Assembly: GCA_026991575.1 (NCBI GenBank)
Contig: JALXBF010000138.1
Coordinates: 75,099 to 116,149, forward strand
Length of the DNA: 41,051 nucleotides
Direction of reading: 5' to 3'
Source of the DNA: Planctomycetota bacterium
GTDB taxonomy: Bacteria; Planctomycetota; Planctomycetia; JALXBF01
The notes under the pieces are model-generated. The model had not been told where the DNA came from, made no database searches, and worked only from the letters and a program-made list of their open reading frames with translations. The translations under genes and the position numbers were made by a program. Positions 30,754-40,716 of this stretch are shown here, one piece after another. Each line of letters starts with the position of its first letter. Position 1 is the stretch's first letter.

Positions 30754-32199
30754 CTACCCTGCCTCCTCAAGCTCCTCACGTAACGTTTTCAACCCGCTCA
30801 TGTAGAAGTGCCACTCCTGTTCGAGCTTGCTCAGGTCCTTACCGAAGACTTCTTTGAACACTTTCAGCAGCAGTTCCTCGGGCAGAGGCATATCTGCCGG
30901 GAGTCTGGACAGGGCGTCATAGTATTCCATGAACTTGTCGAACTTCTTGTTCATCAAGAAATGGGTGAGGGCCCAGGATGGTCCGTAAGCTGCGTCCTTG
31001 GCGGCGACCGTTGCAGCACGCGTGAAGATGCGGTCGCTGGTGATGAATTCGAGGGTGCAGATATCCTTGAGCTTCTTGAGAGCGCGATAGGTCTCTATCC
31101 GCCGTTCATTAACGGCACCGATACCCGCCCAAGCAGCGTCACCCGGTGTTTCGAAGAATGCCGCGAGCCCTTCGTGGACCCAGATTGGCGTGGACACCTG
31201 CGGCGGCAGCAGACCGCTGTTTCCGGCAAGCTGATGACACCCTTCGTGGGTTACCACTTCGATTTCATCGCCTTCGAAAATGATATCCAGAAGCAGTTTC
31301 AAGCTGTTGTGCCTGCGGATCAGTTCGCCGGTGCCCGGAGCGCGTTGCCGTTTTGCCTCCTCTATTTCTTTCTCTTGCTCGCGCAGTAACTTGCGCAGCT
31401 CCTTGCGGAATTCCGTCGTGTCCTGGGCGTAGTAGACGGCCACGTTGTGGAACGAAGACCAGAAGCCGGCGGCCATGCGCAGTTCGGGATCCGTGCGGTT
31501 GACCATGAGCATGTAGTTGTCGTAGTCGCCGTACAGAGTTACCATTAGCTTCTGGTCGGGGAAGTCGAGCTCTCGGCCCTTCAAGTAGAACCAAAGATAG
31601 AAGCTCTCGTAGACCTGTTCCATCAACTCCAGGCGAATCTGCGCCCGTTCCTTGCCAGGAGGATCGTGTGCCAGGAGGTAGTGGTCACTGGTGATGAATT
31701 CCATGCCGCTGCCGACAACTTCGATGATGTGCTCGCGCTGGCCGGGTTTTTCAGGAAGCGGCTGCTTGACCTTTTGCCAGAACGCCTTCAGTTTCTGCAC
31801 CCTTTCGTCATCGGGTGCTTTCTCTTCCATGACTGCGAGAACTTCCTCGAAATGTTGCTTCGTGAGTCCGCGCTGCGCCACCCAGAGAGCCAGCTCGAAG
31901 CAATCATCCAGGGTGCCTTTGCGTGCCGCCTTGAGTTTCCGGTTGTAAAGCTGCTTGCGTGACGGCGCCTTGATGATCTCATCGACGTAGGCGGTTTCGC
32001 CCGTGGCATTCAGCTTGAGGATCAGCTTCCGCTTCAGGTCCGGCAGGTCGATCGAGACCATCCGGCCCGGCAGCACGCGGGCTCGTCCTTCGATCCAGTG
32101 CGGGTGCCCCAGAATCATCAGCCGGATGTAGTCGGCCTGAGCTGAACTGACAAATATCAGACACGCTGACAGGGCCAGCGCTAGCGCCCGCCACATCAT
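30754..32199 (-). CDS. Exported DUF1570-like zinc metallopeptidase (gluzincin)
   Basis: Signal peptide ending AQA, VTHEGCHQL..NSGL, PIWVHEGLAAFFE, AYGPSWALTHFL. ATGA coupling to the upstream stop. Confidence 0.82.
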   Translation of the reverse strand: MMWRALALALSACLIFVSSAQADYIRLMILGHPHWIEGRARVLPGRMVSIDLPDLKRKLILKLNATGETAYVDEIIKAPSRKQLYNRKLKAARKGTLDDCFELALWVAQRGLTKQHFEEVLAVMEEKAPDDERVQKLKAFWQKVKQPLPEKPGQREHIIEVVGSGMEFITSDHYLLAHDPPGKERAQIRLELMEQVYESFYLWFYLKGRELDFPDQKLMVTLYGDYDNYMLMVNRTDPELRMAAGFWSSFHNVAVYYAQDTTEFRKELRKLLREQEKEIEEAKRQRAPGTGELIRRHNSLKLLLDIIFEGDEIEVVTHEGCHQLAGNSGLLPPQVSTPIWVHEGLAAFFETPGDAAWAGIGAVNERRIETYRALKKLKDICTLEFITSDRIFTRAATVAAKDAAYGPSWALTHFLMNKKFDKFMEYYDALSRLPADMPLPEELLLKVFKEVFGKDLSKLEQEWHFYMSGLKTLREELEEAG

Positions 32200-34565
32200 T
32201 GCTGACCGCCTCCACCTTGTGGGGTCTGCTTCAGGGTTCCGGTGCTGACCTTGAGCCCGTTGTCCAGCGTTTCGTCCGCAAGCGTCAGTTCCACACGCTC
32301 GCCGCCGGCGATCGTACACAGGGCTTCGAACACTTTGCTATCGATCGACTTGCTCAGGAACCGCACCGATCCGTCGGCCATCAGCACGTAGACTCCCTCG
32401 GGATCACCCGGAGAGCCAAACGCACCGGTGACGCAAATGTATGGTGCCCGCTGGGCGGGCCGCACGGACGCACCGCCGCCGACTGCCCACGGACCATAAA
32501 CGTCATAAACCTCGATGAGCAAGATTGTGTGGCTGGATCCGTCCTTGATATCGCTGGCCTTCGTGGTCCGGTCGTAGCCAAAGATTCCGGCTCGAGGATG
32601 GTCGGCTGGGAGCCGTGGTGCGTCGTAGCCGACACCGGCCATGCCGACGAAGTGGGTAAGGGCCAGACCGAGGTACGGGTCACTCTGGCCACGACGCACA
32701 GGTACGCGCGGATCGAGGAATTCGTCGATAACGGTCATGGCGGCGCGGATGTTAACTGGGTCGCTCCACGGTTTCTGCAGGTCAAGGCTGTCGTGGAGGT
32801 TTTGCCGCCCAATGTACGGCAAGATGTGCACGAACCAGCTGAATCGCCGGAAGTAAAGCTCGCCGTAGCCCTTCAGCCTTGAGGCCTTGACCTTGATCGT
32901 CCCTGCCGGGAAGACCTGTTTATGGTCTGTCAGGTAGTGACCAATCCCGCTGCGAAGCCGGTCCAACGAGCCGGAGTAAGGCCAGCTCAGTGTTACGTCG
33001 CTGGCAAGTGCGGCCGACAGGGGATTGGTGAGCAGTTCCAGGCGGTTGGTGATCCAGTCCTGGCTGGTGGGGACCTTGGTCCGCACAACGACGACGTTCC
33101 CGCTCTGGTGCACGCTGGCATCGCGCCAGATGCCGGCCAGCGCGGCGACAGCCCCGGCAAACTGGCTGCGGCGGTAGCGTGCTGGATCTTCTACCTCGTT
33201 CTTGCGCTGGCCGCGGCGCCTGGCTTGCTCACTCTTGCGCACGTCCTCTTGCAGACGGCGGGCAAAATCGGGCAGGCCACCCATCCACCGGGCGAACGTC
33301 TCGGCTTCGCCTTTGGTCTTGCACTCAAAGAGCAGTTCGAGCGTAGCGTTTCGCTGGGCCACTCTCAGGACCATGCCGGTGTTGACCGGCCGCTGCATGG
33401 CGTCGCGGATCTCCTCCCGCTGCCGCTCCACGACAAACGACAGAGCCTTGGTCAGCTCCGATCGCATCAAGTCTGAGGGCAGCCACAGGAACGCCGGTAC
33501 GGTGGCCAGCTCGTTCTTAAGCATCTGCTGTAGGACCTTCGGCCAGGGAGGATTGCTTGCTGAGCTGGCCGCCTGTAGCGCCTCAGAGACCAACGTTTTC
33601 GAGCCGGCGAGCATCTGGACCGGGGATGGGAACGCGACCGCGTTGGGGGCGCCGTCCGGGGCCCGGCTGGGTAGTACGTAGATCGGCACATCCACCACCG
33701 GCTCGGCCTGCTTGGCCCGCCACTGCGTGACGACGCGCTGGACGGAGATCGGCTTGGCGGTTTCGTAAGCGACGAGGGTGGCTTTGTCCCGGCCGACGAT
33801 CCACAACTCGGTCACCTCACCAATCAGTGGCGTGACCGGCTGTAGAAGCGGGGACAGTGCTGCCTGCAGTTCTTCGTACCAGATCGCCTCCTGTGGCAGG
33901 GCCTTCAGGTTGAAGTGGCCCAGGACCGCAGCATTAGCGGGCGTAAAACGCATGAGGGGACGCTTCTGCGCGGGGGCATGGGGTTGTTGGCCCGCGGGCG
34001 GGCCAGCTTGGGCTGGTGGCTGGTTGGCTGCCGGCGGCTTGGCTTGGGCAGCAGGCGGCTGCCCCTGTGACGGCGGCAGTCCTTGTTGCAGAGCACGCTC
34101 ACCGGGACTTGTTGCACCGGCCACTGGCGAGGGGGACGGCAAGGTTGTCCTCGTCGGTTCATTCCTGCCGCCCGACAGCGCGATGACTGCGATGATCACG
34201 AGCGTCAGAACGGCGACGGCGCCCCCGCCGCCAAGACCGAGCCAGAGGGCTAGGTTGGGTGAGCCCTTTTGCTGTTTTCTCCTCCGCGCGCGCTGCCGCG
34301 TGACCCCTGCGGCTGGAAGTGCCGGACCGGTCGCCGCAGCGGCTGCGTCCATCAGCTCGCTCGGGATGCCGGCCCCAAAGACGTCATCCAGACCGGATGC
34401 CCCTGAGGCTGCATCCGTGGCGGTCTGCTGCGCTGGAGCCGATCCACCGCCAGGGCTGCCCGGAGTAAACACCGTTCGACAAGAGGCAACCGGACAGCGT
34501 ACCGGCCGTCCTACGGCCTGAACCTTAAGCTTCTTGCCGCAGCCGGGGCAGATCACGATCGGCAT
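32196..34565 (-). CDS. Zinc-ribbon / TM / extracytoplasmic domain / DUF1559 fusion protein
   Basis: N-terminal CPGC..CPVASC, TM LWLGLGGGGAVAVLTLVIIAVIAL, C-terminal DUF1559 hallmarks (FPAG, SWFVHILPY, IKDGSSHTILLIE, LMADGSVRFL, ALCTIAGGE). SD GGGAG. Confidence 0.82.
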   Translation of the reverse strand: MPIVICPGCGKKLKVQAVGRPVRCPVASCRTVFTPGSPGGGSAPAQQTATDAASGASGLDDVFGAGIPSELMDAAAAATGPALPAAGVTRQRARRRKQQKGSPNLALWLGLGGGGAVAVLTLVIIAVIALSGGRNEPTRTTLPSPSPVAGATSPGERALQQGLPPSQGQPPAAQAKPPAANQPPAQAGPPAGQQPHAPAQKRPLMRFTPANAAVLGHFNLKALPQEAIWYEELQAALSPLLQPVTPLIGEVTELWIVGRDKATLVAYETAKPISVQRVVTQWRAKQAEPVVDVPIYVLPSRAPDGAPNAVAFPSPVQMLAGSKTLVSEALQAASSASNPPWPKVLQQMLKNELATVPAFLWLPSDLMRSELTKALSFVVERQREEIRDAMQRPVNTGMVLRVAQRNATLELLFECKTKGEAETFARWMGGLPDFARRLQEDVRKSEQARRRGQRKNEVEDPARYRRSQFAGAVAALAGIWRDASVHQSGNVVVVRTKVPTSQDWITNRLELLTNPLSAALASDVTLSWPYSGSLDRLRSGIGHYLTDHKQVFPAGTIKVKASRLKGYGELYFRRFSWFVHILPYIGRQNLHDSLDLQKPWSDPVNIRAAMTVIDEFLDPRVPVRRGQSDPYLGLALTHFVGMAGVGYDAPRLPADHPRAGIFGYDRTTKASDIKDGSSHTILLIEVYDVYGPWAVGGGASVRPAQRAPYICVTGAFGSPGDPEGVYVLMADGSVRFLSKSIDSKVFEALCTIAGGERVELTLADETLDNGLKVSTGTLKQTPQGGGGQQ

Positions 34566-34733
34566 GGCTGACTCCCGTACGCATGAAGCCGTACCGCTGC
34601 CTGCGTCGGGCGCATTGCGCTCTGACCCGGGAACGGCTCAGTCTGAGGTGGGACCCACGCACCAGTCTGCAACCAACCGATGCGTCGAAGCCGTCGTGGC
34701 GGGCGTTGTCCCTTCAACCGCCGCATGCCCGTG

Positions 34734-35555
34734 TCACTCGCGCCGCTGCGAGCCCTTGCACAAGCGCTCGTAGTAATCGTACAGGCCCAGCTCACGCAAT
34801 TCCTCGGCAATCATCTCCTGGGAATCCGTGCCGAGCGACTGGCGAACCTCTGCCACAATATGCATCAACAGCTTGGCCCGTGCGCGTTCCAGGAGCTTGC
34901 GGTAGTACGTTTCATTCACCTCCTTGCCGATGTGCCGGGACAGACGCGCGGCAAGCTCGTTGGATCGGGCACGCGGGTAGCGGTGCTTCAGCCGCAAAGC
35001 CACGAAGTAGATGGGCACCTTCTTCTTGCGTTCCTCGTCGGCGAACCGCTGCCAGGCAGCCTCCAGCAACTGCTTCTTCCACTCGCGCGTGAACCGATCC
35101 TCCAGATCTGCGTCCCGTGCGCCCATTGTGTCGAGCAACTCCGGCGACCGCCAGCGAGCAAACCAGCGCTTGCGCTTGCGGTGGTAGTCGGCAACCAGAT
35201 TGTCCAGGATGCCTTTGATGTAGTACCGGAACGGCCCCCGCGGCTTCTTGGTCCCGATCTTCTTCTCGATGAACTGGATCATGAACTCCTGGAACACGTC
35301 CTGGACCGCATCGGCTGACGGAAGCCGCGAGTGCAGATAGCGGAGGATCGCGCGCCGGTACCGCATGACGACTTCCGTCATCGCCTCCTTGGCCTTGTCG
35401 TCAGAGCCGTAGGCAGCCTTCAACACACTCCAGTGCGTACTGATCTGGCCCAGCTGATCCGGCGGATGGCTCTGCTCCACCTCGGGAGCCAGCTCAAACG
35501 AGGCCCCGTCCAGATGCGCCGGAGCTGGATTGCTGTCGTAGATCTGATCGAGCAT
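34734..35555 (-). CDS. ECF-type RNA polymerase sigma factor (planctomycete TxWS type)
   Basis: ISTHWS, RYRRAILRYL, AVQDVFQEF, GPFRYYIK..NLVADYHR, FTREW, HTH region ELAARL..YRKLLERARAK. Alternative GTG start at 35621. Confidence 0.82.
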   Translation of the reverse strand: MLDQIYDSNPAPAHLDGASFELAPEVEQSHPPDQLGQISTHWSVLKAAYGSDDKAKEAMTEVVMRYRRAILRYLHSRLPSADAVQDVFQEFMIQFIEKKIGTKKPRGPFRYYIKGILDNLVADYHRKRKRWFARWRSPELLDTMGARDADLEDRFTREWKKQLLEAAWQRFADEERKKKVPIYFVALRLKHRYPRARSNELAARLSRHIGKEVNETYYRKLLERARAKLLMHIVAEVRQSLGTDSQEMIAEELRELGLYDYYERLCKGSQRRE

Positions 35556-35669
35556 AGCGCTACGCGCACCCTCGTAACCTCCCGGGTGAAGCTCCGCTTC
35601 CAACCCCGGTGTCAAGTTCACACCCCAGTGCTTCTCCCCAGCACTACCACACTATCCCGCTAAGCTACC

Positions 35670-35697
35670 AGCTTATCCGCTCTGCGATCCCTGTCAA
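35670..35697 (-). promoter_or_regulatory. Putative sigma70 promoter of the ECF sigma gene
   Basis: Perfect TTGACA (35697-35692), 16-nt spacer, TAAGCT (35675-35670). Confidence 0.55.
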
Positions 35698-35938
35698 GGG
35701 GCAAATCCCGTACCACGTACCCACCAGTACCTAACGCCGCTTTCCCCCACCCTCCGGCGGCCCATCCCGGGGTCCCGCTCCCTCTGCCATCGACCCGCCC
35801 CAGGACGCCTCCAAGCAGCGTTTGCCAGCAAGTCGCACCGGGTTGCGTTCAGCCAGGCACCACAGCACTCGGTCGGCTCGCCTGCCGGTGCCAATCGACC
35901 CGAACCGCCCAACGTGTTGCCTGCAGGCAACAGCAGCG

Positions 35939-36571
35939 CTACCCGATGCGCTCGTAGCTACCCCGGAAGATCGGGCGCCCTTCCTTGCGATACTTCCGCT
36001 CAAAGTGCGTCAGGTAATCCAGGTCGTGCGTTGGCTCGTGTGGCGTTGGCGGGGGAAGCCTCCGCAAAGCGTCGGTCTCGTCGAGCAGCGTGAAAATCAC
36101 CTCCGCGTACTCGGCCACGTCCGTTGCCACGTGGAGCTTGCCCCCCGGCTCCAGCACGCGGACCACCTGAGCCACAAACTCAGGGGTGAACAACCTGCGC
36201 TTCTTGTGCCGCTTCTTCCACCACGGGTCCGGGAAATAGACGTGAACGGCCTGCACAGACGAACTCGGAATGCACTCCGCCAGCAAGAACCTTGCATCGG
36301 CTCGTGTCACACGCACGTTCCGCTCTACGCCGGCCTTCAGCACACGCTCTGCCGATGCCCGCGCATAGCGACCGCTCCAGTCGATGCCGAGGAAGTTGAC
36401 CTCCGGCCGCTCGCTGGCCGCCCGCACCAAGAACAGGCCCTTGCCGCAGCCGACATCCAGCTCCACGGGGTTATCGTTGCCGAACAGCAAGGCCCAGTCG
36501 ATCGGCCCGGTCAACTCCACGAGCACTCTCGCCAGTTCTTCGTCCGAGAATCGCGCCCTTCTGCGGCCCAT
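35939..36571 (-). CDS. trmB: tRNA (guanine-N7)-methyltransferase
   Basis: LFGNDNPVELDVGCGKGLF, NFLGID, FPDPWWKKRHKKRRL, ATDVAEYA, THFERKY. ATG 36571 with upstream AAAGGAG. The ORF-track extension overlaps the divergent gene and is rejected. Confidence 0.95.
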   Translation of the reverse strand: MGRRRARFSDEELARVLVELTGPIDWALLFGNDNPVELDVGCGKGLFLVRAASERPEVNFLGIDWSGRYARASAERVLKAGVERNVRVTRADARFLLAECIPSSSVQAVHVYFPDPWWKKRHKKRRLFTPEFVAQVVRVLEPGGKLHVATDVAEYAEVIFTLLDETDALRRLPPPTPHEPTHDLDYLTHFERKYRKEGRPIFRGSYERIG

Positions 36572-36730
36572 CCCGCTAACCGCTCCTTTGGCTATCGCTA
36601 AGCCGGGCCATCGGCCCGAGTTCTTCGCCCGCCACGCCCGGCGCTCGGTGCCCCCACGCATCTCGCTACACTGGGTATGGACCGTGGCATCGGCAGATCC
36701 CGACGGGTGCGTGACCCGAGGAGGTTCACC

Positions 36731-38596
36731 ATGCGAGCGCCGGCCAAGCTTGCTCTGATTGCTGCCTTCCTCTGCGCCGCATGTGCGCCAGGTGCAGCCA
36801 CAGCCCAAAGACCGGATGCCCCCCGCATAACCCCGGACGAGGCACACCGCTACGTCGGGAAGTTCTGCATTGTAGAAGGACGAATCGTTGAGGTGAGCTG
36901 GCAACGGCGGGCTACGTTTCTGAACTACCAGCCATACCGCCGGGGCTCGCGCGATTTCTACCTGGTCATTGTCGGCCGAGATCGCGAGCGGTTCGACCGG
37001 CGGGAGGTCGAGAGTTGGGAGGGGAAGGTGTTGCGCGTGTACGGCCGGATCGAACTGTACCGGGGCCGGCCTCAGATCCGATTGCGGGATCCAGATCAGG
37101 TTGAGGTGATCGACGGACCACGGCCTCGAGGACCTCGTCGTGGTGGCCTGCACGACGAACGGCCGCGACAGCGCAGCCTGAAAGACCACGTGGTCATCAA
37201 GTTCCTGGGCGGGGCTCGCGAGATTGGTTCCTCGGCCATTCTCGTCAGCAATGGCCGCACCACGGTCCTCCTAGACTACGGCGCACCTTACGGCGAGCAG
37301 CAACGGAGGCGAGCGGCTAAGGGGCCCGAATTCGACCCGGACACGCTCGATGCCGTGATCCTCAGCCACGCGCATCTGGACCACATCGGTCGCATTCCGG
37401 AGCTGGTGGCGGCCGGGTATGACGGCAGGTTCTACGCGACCCGGGTTACGGGGAACCTGGCCCGCACCATGCTGGAAATGGCCGCCGACTTCGATGATCG
37501 ACCGGCTCACCAGGTGCCGGTAGCCCACGTGATCCGTCGGTTTGTGCCAGAAGACTACCACGAGGAGTTCCTCGTGGCGGACGACGTGGAGGTAACTTTC
37601 CTGGACGCGGGCCATATTCCCGGCTCAGCGGTGACCGTGTTGGAGATGAGCACGGCGGACGGCCCTGTCCGGATTGCATACACCGGGGACTACGGCAACG
37701 GGCTCAGCCCGTTGTTGCGGCGGCCTGAGAAAGTCCACGAGGCCGATGTGCTGATCATTGAAGCGACCTACGGCGGGCGGGTTCGAAAACGGGCCATTGG
37801 GGGGGTGGACGCCGTGTTTGAGCCGTTTGTTCGGGACCTTGCTGCGGCCGTGCGCGCGGGCAAGCGCGTGATCATTCCGGCGTTCGTGTTGGACCGTACT
37901 CAGAAGTTGCTATGGGTGATCGGGCGTGCACGTCGTCGCGGCATTCTGCCACGCAACGTGCCGGTTTACGTTACGAGCCGCAGGGCGCGGGAGATCACGG
38001 AGCGGTACGCCATGTTTTGGCACCGCCGCGATCAGTTTGCTCAGTATTTCTCGCAGCGCTGGTTGACCCAAGATCATCCGTTCTTTGGGCTCCGCTATCG
38101 CGCGGCGCCGCGCGGTGACGATGGCCCGCCGCCGCGGCCCTCGATCGTGATTGCTTCCTCGGCGGACGGCAGGCATGCGGCCAGTCGGGCGCTGATCGAG
38201 CGGCTGGCCGGCGATCGCCACACGGCGTTTTTCATCGTGGGTTATGCACCGCCCGAGACGCCCGTAGGGCAGCTGGCGGCCATCGCCACCGGACGGCGAC
38301 CGGAGCGTTGGATCAAAGTGGACGGGCGGTCGTTGATGGTGCAGGCTGATGTGAGGAAGTACAGCATGTTCTCCGCGCATGCGGATCGAGAGCAGATGGT
38401 GGAGTTTGTCACGGCGTGTCGGAACTGGAGACATGTCTTTGTCGTACATGGAGAAAAACGCAGTTGTCTGGCGCTGGTTGACCGCATCCGCGAGGAGTTT
38501 CCGCAGCGGGCCGACCGGGTTGTCGCGCCACGCCGCCTTGAGTCGTTCCGTGTCGAACCTGCGCCGGTCCGCCCTCGGGCCGCGTTACGTCCCTGA
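36731..38596 (+). CDS. MBL-fold beta-CASP ribonuclease (CPSF-73/Ysh1/TTHA0252-like) with N-terminal signal peptide and OB-fold domain
   Basis: Strong SD GAGGAGG. Signal MRAPAKLALIAAFLCAACAPGAATA, OB-fold-like residues about 32-127, then FLGGAREIGSS, LLDYG, SHAHLDHIG, AGHIPGS, TGDYG, EATYG, IPAF..DRTQ, FSAHAD, VHGE. Confidence 0.88.
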   Translation: MRAPAKLALIAAFLCAACAPGAATAQRPDAPRITPDEAHRYVGKFCIVEGRIVEVSWQRRATFLNYQPYRRGSRDFYLVIVGRDRERFDRREVESWEGKVLRVYGRIELYRGRPQIRLRDPDQVEVIDGPRPRGPRRGGLHDERPRQRSLKDHVVIKFLGGAREIGSSAILVSNGRTTVLLDYGAPYGEQQRRRAAKGPEFDPDTLDAVILSHAHLDHIGRIPELVAAGYDGRFYATRVTGNLARTMLEMAADFDDRPAHQVPVAHVIRRFVPEDYHEEFLVADDVEVTFLDAGHIPGSAVTVLEMSTADGPVRIAYTGDYGNGLSPLLRRPEKVHEADVLIIEATYGGRVRKRAIGGVDAVFEPFVRDLAAAVRAGKRVIIPAFVLDRTQKLLWVIGRARRRGILPRNVPVYVTSRRAREITERYAMFWHRRDQFAQYFSQRWLTQDHPFFGLRYRAAPRGDDGPPPRPSIVIASSADGRHAASRALIERLAGDRHTAFFIVGYAPPETPVGQLAAIATGRRPERWIKVDGRSLMVQADVRKYSMFSAHADREQMVEFVTACRNWRHVFVVHGEKRSCLALVDRIREEFPQRADRVVAPRRLESFRVEPAPVRPRAALRP

Positions 38597-38616
38597 GCAG
38601 CGTGACTCCAGCGCGA

Positions 38617-39681
38617 ATGATGACGCAGTTCTCCGCGCGCAGCCTGATGGCACAGAACGGCACATGGTCCAACCGACTTCTCCGCTTCGAGCCGGTCTTG
38701 AAAGAACGGATCTGGGGCGGTCGACGGCTCGCGCAGCTTTTTGGCAAGGCAGCCGCGCCGGAGCGGCGCATCGGCGAGAGCTGGGAGCTGTTCGCGTTTG
38801 CGGGCGACAGCGTGCGGGTCAGCGCAGGGGGGGGCGGAGGCGACGGCGCACCGCTCGCCGAACTGATTCGCCGACGCTGTGTTCCAGTCGACGACCACTC
38901 CGTGCAGACGGGCTCGTTCCCCTTGCTGTTCAAGTGGATCGACGCTGCCGAGGACCTTTCGGTACAGGTACACCCCCCTGACGGCCACCCGCTCGTGCCT
39001 GCGGGGCATCGGGGCAAGACAGAGTGCTGGGCAGTGGTCTCTGCGGAGCCCGGTGCCAGCCTGTACGTAGGCCTGAAGCCGGGGGTGAAGCCGGAGGAAG
39101 TTGCCGACGGCGTACGCACGGGCCAGGTGGCGGAGTTGTTGCAGCGGTACCCGGCGGTACCCGGGGAGGTGTTCTTCGTGCCGGCTGGCACGGTGCACGC
39201 CATCGGCCGTGGCGTGACGCTGGCGGAGATTCAGCAGGCCAGCGATGTGACCTTCCGGCTTTACGACTGGGACCGGATCGACCCGAGCACCGGAGTTCGG
39301 CGCCCGTTGCACGTCGAACCGGCGCTGGCATGTCTGGCCGATCACCCGGCGGCAGGGCGAGTGACGCCGCGGTGCACGCTCCGTGCTGACGCGGTGGTGG
39401 TCGAGCAGTTGGTGTCGGCCAGCTGTTGTCACGCATTCGTGCTGGATCGTGTCACGGTGCGTTGCCGTGTGCAAGGTACAATCCCACGACCGTGGAGCGT
39501 GTGGATGGTCACGGAGGGCAGGGCGGTCGTGGCGATCCGCGATCGAAAGGAGTGGCTGCGGCCAGGCGATACGGTACTGGTGCTGGGTGAGGCGGAGCTT
39601 CAGATCGAGCCGATTGCCTCGCCCCTGGTGCTGCTGGAAACCCGCCTACCGAACACCGGCTCAACGGCGTGGCTTGGTTGA
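38617..39681 (+). CDS. manA: Mannose-6-phosphate isomerase, class I
   Basis: RIWGG, IGESW, FPLLFKWIDA, LSVQVHP, GKTECW, PAGTVHAIG, EIQQASDVTFRLYDWDR. Start uncertain (38602, 38617 or 38647). Confidence 0.92.
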   Translation: MMTQFSARSLMAQNGTWSNRLLRFEPVLKERIWGGRRLAQLFGKAAAPERRIGESWELFAFAGDSVRVSAGGGGGDGAPLAELIRRRCVPVDDHSVQTGSFPLLFKWIDAAEDLSVQVHPPDGHPLVPAGHRGKTECWAVVSAEPGASLYVGLKPGVKPEEVADGVRTGQVAELLQRYPAVPGEVFFVPAGTVHAIGRGVTLAEIQQASDVTFRLYDWDRIDPSTGVRRPLHVEPALACLADHPAAGRVTPRCTLRADAVVVEQLVSASCCHAFVLDRVTVRCRVQGTIPRPWSVWMVTEGRAVVAIRDRKEWLRPGDTVLVLGEAELQIEPIASPLVLLETRLPNTGSTAWLG

Positions 39682-39738
39682 GGGGGCTACGCCACGCAGC
39701 ACCGCAACGATCCGCGTGTGACGTCAGCGGGGGAATCG

Positions 39739-40716
39739 ATGCCGATAAGTTTGCACGAGTACGCCGACTGGCTCGACAACCGCACCGATCTCTTCTGGCC
39801 CAAACCACCTCAGGTCCATGCTCCCAAGGTCAAACCACTGTTGCGCCGGTTGCGCGGTATTCGCCTGGTGACGTTCAACACGTACGGCACGCTGATCGCT
39901 ATTCGCGGCGGCGAGCTCAGGCTGGTGGAGCCGAACCGCTTGATCATGGAAACGGCCCTGGAGAAGACGATTCAGGAGTTCAAGATGTGGCCGTCGATGA
40001 CCCGTAAGCCGGGCAAGCCCTCCGAGTACATGATGCAGCAGTACCAGCAGCTGCTCGATGAGGCCAAGCTCCGGCCAGCCGTTGGCGAGCGTTACCCGGA
40101 GATCCGCGTCGAGGAGATCTGGGAGAAGATCATCAACCGCCTGATGAAGAAGGAGTACACCTTTGACGTCAACTTCTACGGGTCGCTCACGCAGTTTGCC
40201 CGCTGCGTTGCGTTCTTCTTCCACGCTAGTCTGCAGGGGTACGGTCCCCAGCCGGGGGCTCTGGCTACGCTGCGTGCGCTGAAGCGGCTCGGCTTCCGCC
40301 TGGGCATCATTGGCGATGGGCAGGCGTTCACGCGGGTGCAGTTACTGAGGGCGTTGCGGCAGGAGGGGGAACTGACGTCGCTCAATGAGCTGTTCGATGA
40401 GGCGTTCATTGCGATTTCTGCGGAGGTCGGAGCACGCCGGCCGTCAGAAACGCTTTTCCGCAAAGTGGTCAGCGCGGCAGCCGAGCGGGGCATTCCGGCC
40501 ACGTCCATCCTGCACGTGGGCAACAGCCTGGAGTTGGATGTGGCCCCGGCCAAGCGATTGCACCTACGCACCGCGCTGTACGCCGGGGACAAGGAAGCGG
40601 TGCAGGCCAATAAGGAGCAGCTAGCGGACAAGGCGACGCGGCCGGACGTGCTACTGGCTGAGCTCCGCCAGCTGGTGCCGTGCCTACGTGAGAACGCCCC
40701 CGCCGCTACCACCTAG
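39739..40716 (+). CDS. HAD-superfamily hydrolase-like protein with degenerate catalytic motifs
   Basis: Motif I-like VTFNTYGTL, LGIIGDGQ, SAEVGARRP, LHVGNSLELDVAPAK..RTALY. Confidence 0.8.
   Translation: MPISLHEYADWLDNRTDLFWPKPPQVHAPKVKPLLRRLRGIRLVTFNTYGTLIAIRGGELRLVEPNRLIMETALEKTIQEFKMWPSMTRKPGKPSEYMMQQYQQLLDEAKLRPAVGERYPEIRVEEIWEKIINRLMKKEYTFDVNFYGSLTQFARCVAFFFHASLQGYGPQPGALATLRALKRLGFRLGIIGDGQAFTRVQLLRALRQEGELTSLNELFDEAFIAISAEVGARRPSETLFRKVVSAAAERGIPATSILHVGNSLELDVAPAKRLHLRTALYAGDKEAVQANKEQLADKATRPDVLLAELRQLVPCLRENAPAATT

Follow-up and report, generated by a model that had tools for sequence, protein, structure and literature searches.

We analysed a gene carried on the forward strand at positions 36731-38596 of a 41,051-nucleotide stretch of DNA from a Planctomycetota bacterium (contig JALXBF010000138.1, positions 75,099 to 116,149; the whole stretch is referred to here as the window). 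The gene encodes a 621-residue product (P0001) that is probably exported by the Sec pathway, processed by signal peptidase I (SPI) and active as an extracytoplasmic nuclease, whether in the periplasm or farther out; this is the best-supported reading of the sequence. A preliminary description of this DNA had proposed such an exported enzyme, with an OB-fold joined to a beta-CASP nuclease, and comparisons with related sequences support that proposal. We infer export because N-terminal signals occur throughout a clade of related proteins (99 of 119 members have an N-terminal hydrophobic segment, versus 0 of 113 cytoplasmic relatives), because lipoboxes occur in this clade, and because the family to which the OB-fold belongs bears signals and is fused to nucleases of secreted type. 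Going beyond the preliminary description, these comparisons suggest that the gene belongs, as a single branch, to a large clade of exported beta-CASP proteins that has gone unannotated. The enzyme family is known, as is the design of signal, OB-fold and nuclease; their combination in this protein and the large exported beta-CASP clade appear to be undescribed.

Architecture of the predicted protein

As judged by Pfam, phmmer and the structure model, the beta-CASP nuclease core extends over residues 154-610 (37190-38560, +). It contains, on the same strand, Lactamase_B at residues 166-322 (37226-37696; 53.5 bits against a cut-off of 22.7), Beta-Casp (PF10996) at residues 390-512 (37898-38266; 42.1 bits against 27.7) and RMMBL (PF07521) at residues 535-591 (38333-38503; 51.6 bits against 21.6). 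The metal-binding motif HxHxDH (H213, H215, D217 and H218; 37367-37384, +) was invariant in two alignments, as were D182, H295 and D320, which together with it make up metallo-beta-lactamase (MBL) motifs 1-4, and the beta-CASP motifs E344, H550 (SAHAD) and H573 (VHGE). The definitions of MBL motifs 1-4 reportedly go back to Callebaut et al. in 2002. All of the MBL and beta-CASP motif residues aligned with their counterparts in TTHA0252 of Thermus thermophilus (PDB 2dkf and 3iek), and the catalytic part of the full-length model had a predicted local distance difference test score (pLDDT) above 90. TTHA0252 was the best solved relative both by sequence (phmmer E 1.7e-43) and by fold (TMt 0.89-0.90, root-mean-square deviation 2.6 A, 28% identity) and has the same MBL/beta-CASP/RMMBL layout. 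The earlier claim of a beta-CASP nuclease with every catalytic motif intact was therefore borne out by the Pfam scores, the TTHA0252 alignment and the fold match. However, TTHA0252, which is regarded as a cytoplasmic RNA-degrading enzyme, is only 431 residues long, starts with the catalytic domain and has neither a signal peptide nor an OB-fold, whereas the window protein adds ~153 N-terminal residues.

A histidine rather than a valine at motif C marks beta-CASP enzymes of the RNA type. The window protein has both this histidine (H573) and RMMBL, the C-terminal 'RNA specificity' domain, and so falls in the RNA-type (CPSF-73/TTHA0252-like) subgroup, an assignment of sequence class only. Three named members of the wider family were considered as identities and rejected: (i) RNase J, as TIGR00649 scored 24.3 bits against a cut-off of 400; (ii) aCPSF1/FttA, as TIGR03675 scored 211 bits against a cut-off of 580 and covered only the catalytic part (profile positions 172-630), with no KH match in Pfam; and (iii) Cas14 of type VII CRISPR systems, as NF045584 scored 238 bits against a cut-off of 800 and the adjacent open reading frames (ORFs) encode trmB, a phosphomannose isomerase, a HAD hydrolase and a sigma factor.

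Upstream of the catalytic core, residues ~31-128 (36821-37114, +) form a basic domain (pI 9.8) of the tRNA_anti-codon-like OB type. The OB domain and the full-length protein were folded separately, as a joint alignment of OB-only and beta-CASP sequences misplaced catalytic N-termini onto the OB region and was dropped. The AlphaFold model of residues 27-135, built from a 40-row alignment (38 family proteins and the OB domains of the window and of the sister genome introduced below), had a pLDDT of 91.4. Foldseek returned 126 PDB matches for it at E<=1e-3, the best being the anticodon-binding OB domains of class IIb aminoacyl-tRNA synthetases (Asp-, Asn- and Lys-tRNA synthetase; prob 1.00), followed by further matches that included CST and an OBody. 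VIA-align, which is independent of Foldseek, gave Teb1, AsnRS/AspRS, PolC, RecG, Stn1/Ten1 and RPA OB-folds as its best matches (Z 9.5-7; 9.5-8 for Teb1, AsnRS, PolC, RecG and Stn1), and the ESM Atlas placed the domain in a cluster labelled 'OB-fold nucleic acid binding' at 0.96. At the profile level, PF01336 was matched by 24 of the 40 aligned rows at E<=0.01 (best E 3e-7), and DUF4131, the model for the ComEC OB-fold, was weakly matched by three of them. The preliminary description had read a module of ~95 residues as an OB-fold, and the structural models confirm these residues as an OB-fold of nucleic-acid-binding type, with AlphaFold, Foldseek and VIA-align in agreement.

The two domains are joined by a basic Pro/Arg-rich linker (residues 129-153; 37115-37189, +) with low pLDDT in both models, a net charge of +5 over residues 129-155, and a length and sequence that vary among the orthologues.

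Orthologues and the reality of the fusion

The whole order of signal, OB-fold and beta-CASP nuclease was found in three further 90%-identity clusters (P0002-P0004) from different sources, at 54-67% identity and 95-99% coverage. One of them, P0003, is encoded at locus L003 of G001, the one further genome in the same family (here called the sister genome), where the gene order is the same. No close homologue was found in which the OB and nuclease parts are split. A chance fusion or an assembly chimera, alternatives that the preliminary description had raised together with separate genes, was therefore rejected, because the architecture recurs in three other clusters from other assemblies and because the sister genome has the same six-gene order. 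The closest relative lacking the OB-fold (P0005) is 37% identical, and the best non-self OB matches, at <=45% identity, are in other proteins. Third-position G+C content comes to 0.71 for the OB part, 0.70 for the linker and 0.75 for the catalytic part; only the 26-codon signal region lies lower (0.54).

The fusion itself is rare. None of 400 other genomes sampled from the phylum matched P0001 at E<=1e-60, and a single-protein scan of metagenomes gave no match. The alignment-based metagenome scan yielded a single locus (L070); its protein matches P0003 of the sister genome at every residue and so is not independent of it.

Start codon and predicted N-terminal signal

The frame is open without interruption to the stop codon at 38594-38596 (+), and a Shine-Dalgarno (SD) sequence, GGAGG (36720-36724, +), was read directly 6 nucleotides 5' of the ATG at 36731, in line with the strong SD noted in the preliminary description. 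P0002, the closest orthologue (67% identity), has an N-terminus that aligns with this start. The reading frame is also open back to an ATG at 36677, which would add 18 residues and has no SD. This upstream extension (36677-36730, +) would contribute MDRGIGRSRRVRDPRRFT, with two Arg-Arg pairs; the starts of the orthologues do not match it.

A further start, at the internal GTG of codon 154 (37190), would allow dual location of the product, i.e. the same gene would also yield a cytoplasmic enzyme of ~468 residues, the canonical length. This GTG lies exactly where canonical proteins start, in a ...KFLGGA stretch, and the genome has no separate cytoplasmic paralogue. However, the GTG is not preceded by an SD, and the DNA of the sister orthologue has ATC at the equivalent codon. 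An internal start near 37190, which the preliminary description had named as a possible objection, is therefore unsupported, and we consider dual location extremely improbable.

From the ATG at 36731, the first 25 residues (36731-36805, +) are predicted to be a signal peptide, with the sequence MRAPAKLALIAAFLCAACAPGAATA followed by Q26. In a heuristic reading, the basic n-region (R2 and K6) is followed by LALIAAFLCAACA, with an h-region of 13 residues, then by P-G and by A23-T24-A25/Q26, i.e. a c-region PGAATA ending in an A-x-A/Q site. The features of a Sec/SPI signal are thus all present on this reading (a basic n-region, an h-region within 7-15 residues and small residues at -3 and -1), in line with the earlier description of a Sec-like signal. 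We scored the hydrophobicity of N-termini by the best Kyte-Doolittle 10-mer, which is a heuristic and not a signal-peptide predictor; P0001 scored 2.84, whereas the 113 cytoplasmic (canonical) relatives scored <=1.9. The full-length model has a helix at residues 4-17. A signal-like N-terminus is retained in P0002-P0004, where the predicted sites are similar in P0002 (IAS/Q) and P0004 (VEA/Q) and weaker in P0003 (VAQ/Q), and glutamine directly follows the site in all four orthologues, the window protein included.

Two other types of signal were rejected. In lipoproteins, which signal peptidase II processes, the h-region ends in the lipobox pattern [LVI][ASTVI][GAS]C; in the window protein the residues before C15 are A-F-L and those before C18 are C-A-A, so that no lipobox is formed, and neither cysteine is kept in P0002-P0004. 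A Tat signal is not supported because there is no RR in the form starting at 36731. The upstream ATG would supply one (...PRRFTMR..., 8 residues from the h-region), and one of the four orthologues has an RR (P0003, which begins MNRRAIAPP and is Tat-like).

The signal could instead remain uncleaved and act as an anchor, leaving an exported OB-nuclease tethered to the outer face of the cytoplasmic membrane. Residues L7-A25 provide 19 mostly apolar residues, P0003 combines a longer hydrophobic stretch with a poor residue at -1, and the wider clade has many lipoproteins, which makes attachment to the membrane common there. However, the continuous core in the window protein is only 13 residues long and is followed by the helix-breaking P-G and the A-x-A motif, and the protein has neither a lipobox nor a conserved cysteine. 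We therefore regard tethered export as unlikely and retain cleavage by SPI as the favoured prediction.

A clade of signal-bearing beta-CASP proteins

Only seven of the 120 nearest homologues of P0001 have a hydrophobic N-terminus, namely P0001-P0006 and P0084, the last of which has a textbook lipobox (LFSSC). When P0084 was itself used as the query, a large set of proteins of 520-600 residues was recovered, whereas the usual cytoplasmic forms have ~465 residues. P0084 and its 118 best relatives made up the clade set of 119 proteins in which the 99 hydrophobic N-termini were counted. The strict lipobox pattern was passed by 32 of these 119, and several of the 20 without a hydrophobic segment (e.g. 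P0292, P0333 and P0347) have their start at the first catalytic strand or within it, which may reflect truncation of the gene calls.

We built a FastTree phylogeny of 84 rows, comprising the four OB forms, P0005, P0006, P0084, every third protein of P0272-P0387 and every third of P0007-P0120. The 38 cytoplasmic rows were split from the 46 signal-bearing rows at a support of 100, and the four OB forms with P0005 were sister to the remaining signal-bearing rows. The tree has no outgroup and the sets were gathered by similarity, so its informative part is that the split coincides with the signal label. The window protein lies on the same side of this split as the signal-bearing clade (P0084, P0310 and loci L014-L038), and shares with it the motifs LDAGHIPGSA and (F)VLDRTQK as well as the N-terminal export signal. 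It differs in that clade proteins have no OB-fold and carry instead an insert of ~60-90 residues with a near-invariant H..C...C..C pattern, which is absent from the window protein and its three orthologues, and in its lack of a lipobox, lipoproteins being numerous in the clade.

The clade insert, seen in P0005, P0006, P0084 and alignment A4, follows the MBL helix and has near-invariant H170, C174, C206 and C209 (P0084 numbering); a zinc knuckle and a disulphide module are both conceivable. The only names that source databases give to clade proteins are 'MBL fold metallo-hydrolase' and 'metallo-beta-lactamase family protein'. The wider clade occurs in metagenome-assembled genomes labelled Ignavibacteria, Bacteroidota, Calditrichota, Planctomycetota, Lentisphaerae and Thermodesulfobacteriota, and in one complete genome (L025). 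None of 401 genomes sampled from the phylum matched P0310 at E<=1e-70; this threshold may be too strict and the search had no positive control, so commonness in the phylum cannot be read from this count.

Defence-type genes were seen beside six of 25 clade loci (seven when L029, with its ParE/nucleotidyltransferase/transposase cluster, is included), with no partner common to them, and their occurrence may be due to chance. These were WYL and Cas6b genes in L027 (2200-3969), AbiEii in L037 (8431-9204), HNH in L015 (7746-8555), Csx3-like genes in L031 (9371-10321) and L035 (9353-10327), and DUF499/DUF7744/DUF7680 genes in L025 (9368-13215).

The OB module family

A phmmer search with the OB part against 1.84 billion representatives gave 1170 proteins at E<=1e-3, with tandem copies in many of them. 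Among the best 149 of these 1170, 109 had a hydrophobic 10-mer within their first 50 residues. We scanned 114 family members with Pfam (30 at E<=0.01 together with 84 that were longer than 190 residues at E<=1e-9) and found the module fused to SNase in 19 cases, PLDc_2 in six, EEP in one and Ser/Thr kinase domains in five. Besides the query's own cluster, no other combination of OB-fold and beta-CASP domain was found among the best 150 representatives. The signal-like N-termini of the family and its nuclease fusions imply that the OB module is an extracytoplasmic accessory that has repeatedly been joined to nucleases of unrelated folds. In the five kinases (P0122, P0150, P0153, P0221 and P0262) the module, often in tandem, lies at the C-terminal end; on this arrangement, kinase-linked OB modules may act as sensors of extracellular nucleic acid.

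These fusions also bear on the substrate. MBL-fold enzymes and OB-folds are both functionally diverse, and the window protein could conceivably be an exported hydrolase of some other phosphodiester polymer or small molecule, with the OB-fold binding, e.g., an oligosaccharide. The presence of the module on protein kinases and a gene context with no link to nucleic acids are compatible with this idea. However, no beta-CASP motif is missing, the protein has the RMMBL domain, every one of the nearest structures is an RNase, the recognisable enzyme partners of the OB module are nucleases of three unrelated folds, and the strong positive charge of the protein fits nucleic acid. A substrate other than nucleic acid is accordingly very unlikely.

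Evidence for a possible cytoplasmic location

Several observations weigh against an exported OB-fold nuclease. To our knowledge, all characterised beta-CASP enzymes are intracellular (RNase J, CPSF-73/Ysh1, aCPSF1/FttA, Integrator-11, Artemis/SNM1, TTHA0252 and Cas14). The Pfam scan of the window's own residues 27-135 gave no match at E<=1 or at E<=0.01, and in the full-length model, where four rows covered the OB part, that part had a pLDDT <50 and the arrangement of OB-fold and active site is not readable from the model. The neighbouring genes have housekeeping functions (trmB, mannose-6-phosphate isomerase and HAD hydrolase) and, together with a FabA/Z-like gene, offer no hint on function, and no conserved partner gene was found in the neighbourhoods of the 25 clade loci, so a function cannot be read from operon structure. 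Finally, in the genome of the window (G000; 191 contigs, 97.8% complete) there is neither a second Beta-Casp match nor an RNase J, and beta-CASP proteins were found in 40 of 41 genomes (this one and 40 relatives), nearly all of them matching only residues ~150-610. As the sole beta-CASP protein of its genome, the window protein could have to take on a cytoplasmic role.

These genomic results would suit a membrane-tethered RNA-decay enzyme, in which the N-terminal helix anchors the protein to the inner face of the membrane, as is the case for some bacterial RNases, and the protein serves as the only beta-CASP RNase of the cell. However, the basic residues precede the hydrophobic segment, which predicts an N-in/C-out orientation; the clade includes lipobox proteins, which are necessarily exported; and the relatives of the OB-fold, by a large majority, bear signals and are joined to SNase or PLD nucleases. 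In addition, beta-CASP proteins are absent altogether from one genome of the same class that is 97% complete, so the cytoplasmic copy is not indispensable, and the sister genome keeps a canonical copy (contig C98) beside the OB form. The cytoplasmic paralogue about which the preliminary description had asked is thus missing from the window's own genome and present in the sister genome, and its absence from G000 is either a true loss or an assembly gap. Taking both sides together, we consider an inner-face RNase quite unlikely, and a periplasmic or more distant site of action remains the favoured reading.

The window's own genome (G000) encodes a separate ComEC (an 842-residue frame) and two small SNase homologues; when it was searched for Endonuclease_NS and Endonuclease_1, neither was matched.

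Proposed mechanism and role

Under the favoured reading, Sec export and cleavage near A25/Q26 would give a very basic mature protein of 596 residues (net charge +24, pI 10.2), in which a flexible basic linker connects the N-terminal OB-fold to a two-metal hydrolase of the TTHA0252/CPSF-73 beta-CASP type. The OB-fold would bind single-stranded nucleic acid and the linker would keep this strand close to the two-metal site, at the interface of the MBL and beta-CASP domains, where motifs 2-4 and C have ligand roles according to the family literature, and the active site would then hydrolyse the phosphodiester backbone. The substrate is probably single-stranded RNA (ssRNA) and possibly single-stranded DNA (ssDNA) as well; ssRNA is proposed because of the histidine at motif C and the RMMBL domain. 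The role of the enzyme would most likely be the breakdown of extracytoplasmic RNA or DNA for nutrients or turnover. Uptake and defence are further candidate roles, and the preliminary description had put forward scavenging or the destruction of incoming nucleic acid as possible ones.

For the clade as a whole, we lean slightly towards a wider picture in which an extracytoplasmic branch of beta-CASP proteins, with hundreds of forms in Bacteroidota, Ignavibacteria, Calditrichota, Planctomycetota and Lentisphaerae, degrades or processes nucleic acids in the periplasm or at the cell surface. In this picture the lineage of the window would have swapped the Cys/His insert for the OB module of secreted nucleases, giving a tethered, processive exonuclease for environmental ssRNA or ssDNA that is the only beta-CASP protein left in its genome. 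If so, the exported branch would extend beta-CASP biology to the turnover of extracellular nucleic acids, i.e. to phosphorus and nitrogen scavenging, to remodelling of extracellular DNA and RNA, and possibly to uptake or defence. Beta-CASP would also become the fourth catalytic fold, beside SNase, PLD and EEP, among secreted nucleases that use the same OB module, a case of modular convergence. The window protein is one target for experiments, and there are easier ones among clade members in cultured or complete genomes, such as that at locus L025. Annotation pipelines would have reason to drop the bare label 'MBL fold metallo-hydrolase' for this clade.

Comparison with known systems

A search of the full-text literature, whose coverage leaves out most subscription journals, found no description of an exported beta-CASP enzyme, which agrees with the statement in the preliminary description that no exported family member had been described. 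The catalytic core is homologous to those of aCPSF1/FttA, RNase J and Cas14, all of which are intracellular, and the N-terminal RNA-binding domains of aCPSF1 are KH domains whereas the window protein has an OB-fold. The secreted nucleases that combine an OB-fold with an SNase or PLD domain, of which YhcR of B. subtilis is an example, use the same OB module family and the same design (export signal, OB-fold, nuclease) as the window protein, with an unrelated catalytic fold.

ComEC likewise pairs a substrate-binding OB-fold with an MBL-fold nuclease outside the cytoplasm, as described in two reports (PMC12455585, PMC5031224). In the first, fusion of the OB-fold to the MBL nuclease raised the rate of DNA degradation about seven-fold (PMC12455585), and in the second the MBL domain of ComEC is without a beta-CASP insert (PMC5031224). 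However, ComEC is the DNA channel of competence, a polytopic membrane protein; the window protein gave no match to the Competence domain (PF03772), and identity with ComEC was therefore rejected.

Immediate surroundings of the gene

The ORF for phosphomannose isomerase begins 6 nucleotides beyond the stop codon, at 38602. On the other side lies a divergent trmB-like tRNA methyltransferase gene (35939-36640, -; Pfam Methyltransf_4, E 4e-43), which we mention for context only and which has the same divergent arrangement in the sister genome. A scan of 36300-38900 for promoters and terminators returned 0 promoter-like and 0 terminator-like sites, and such a scan is uninformative for this type of organism. 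A comparison of 32196-40716 of the window with L003 and L070 showed that six genes follow one another in the sister genome just as they do here: those for the DUF1559 protein, a sigma-70-like protein, trmB, the OB-beta-CASP protein, phosphomannose isomerase and a HAD hydrolase. The first of these genes (32196-34565, -) encodes a 789-residue protein that starts with a zinc-ribbon-like CxxC...C stretch, has a C-terminal DUF1559 domain (PF07596) and also contains a single hydrophobic segment and a low-complexity region of Pro/Ala/Gln, and a homologous gene occupies the same position in L070.

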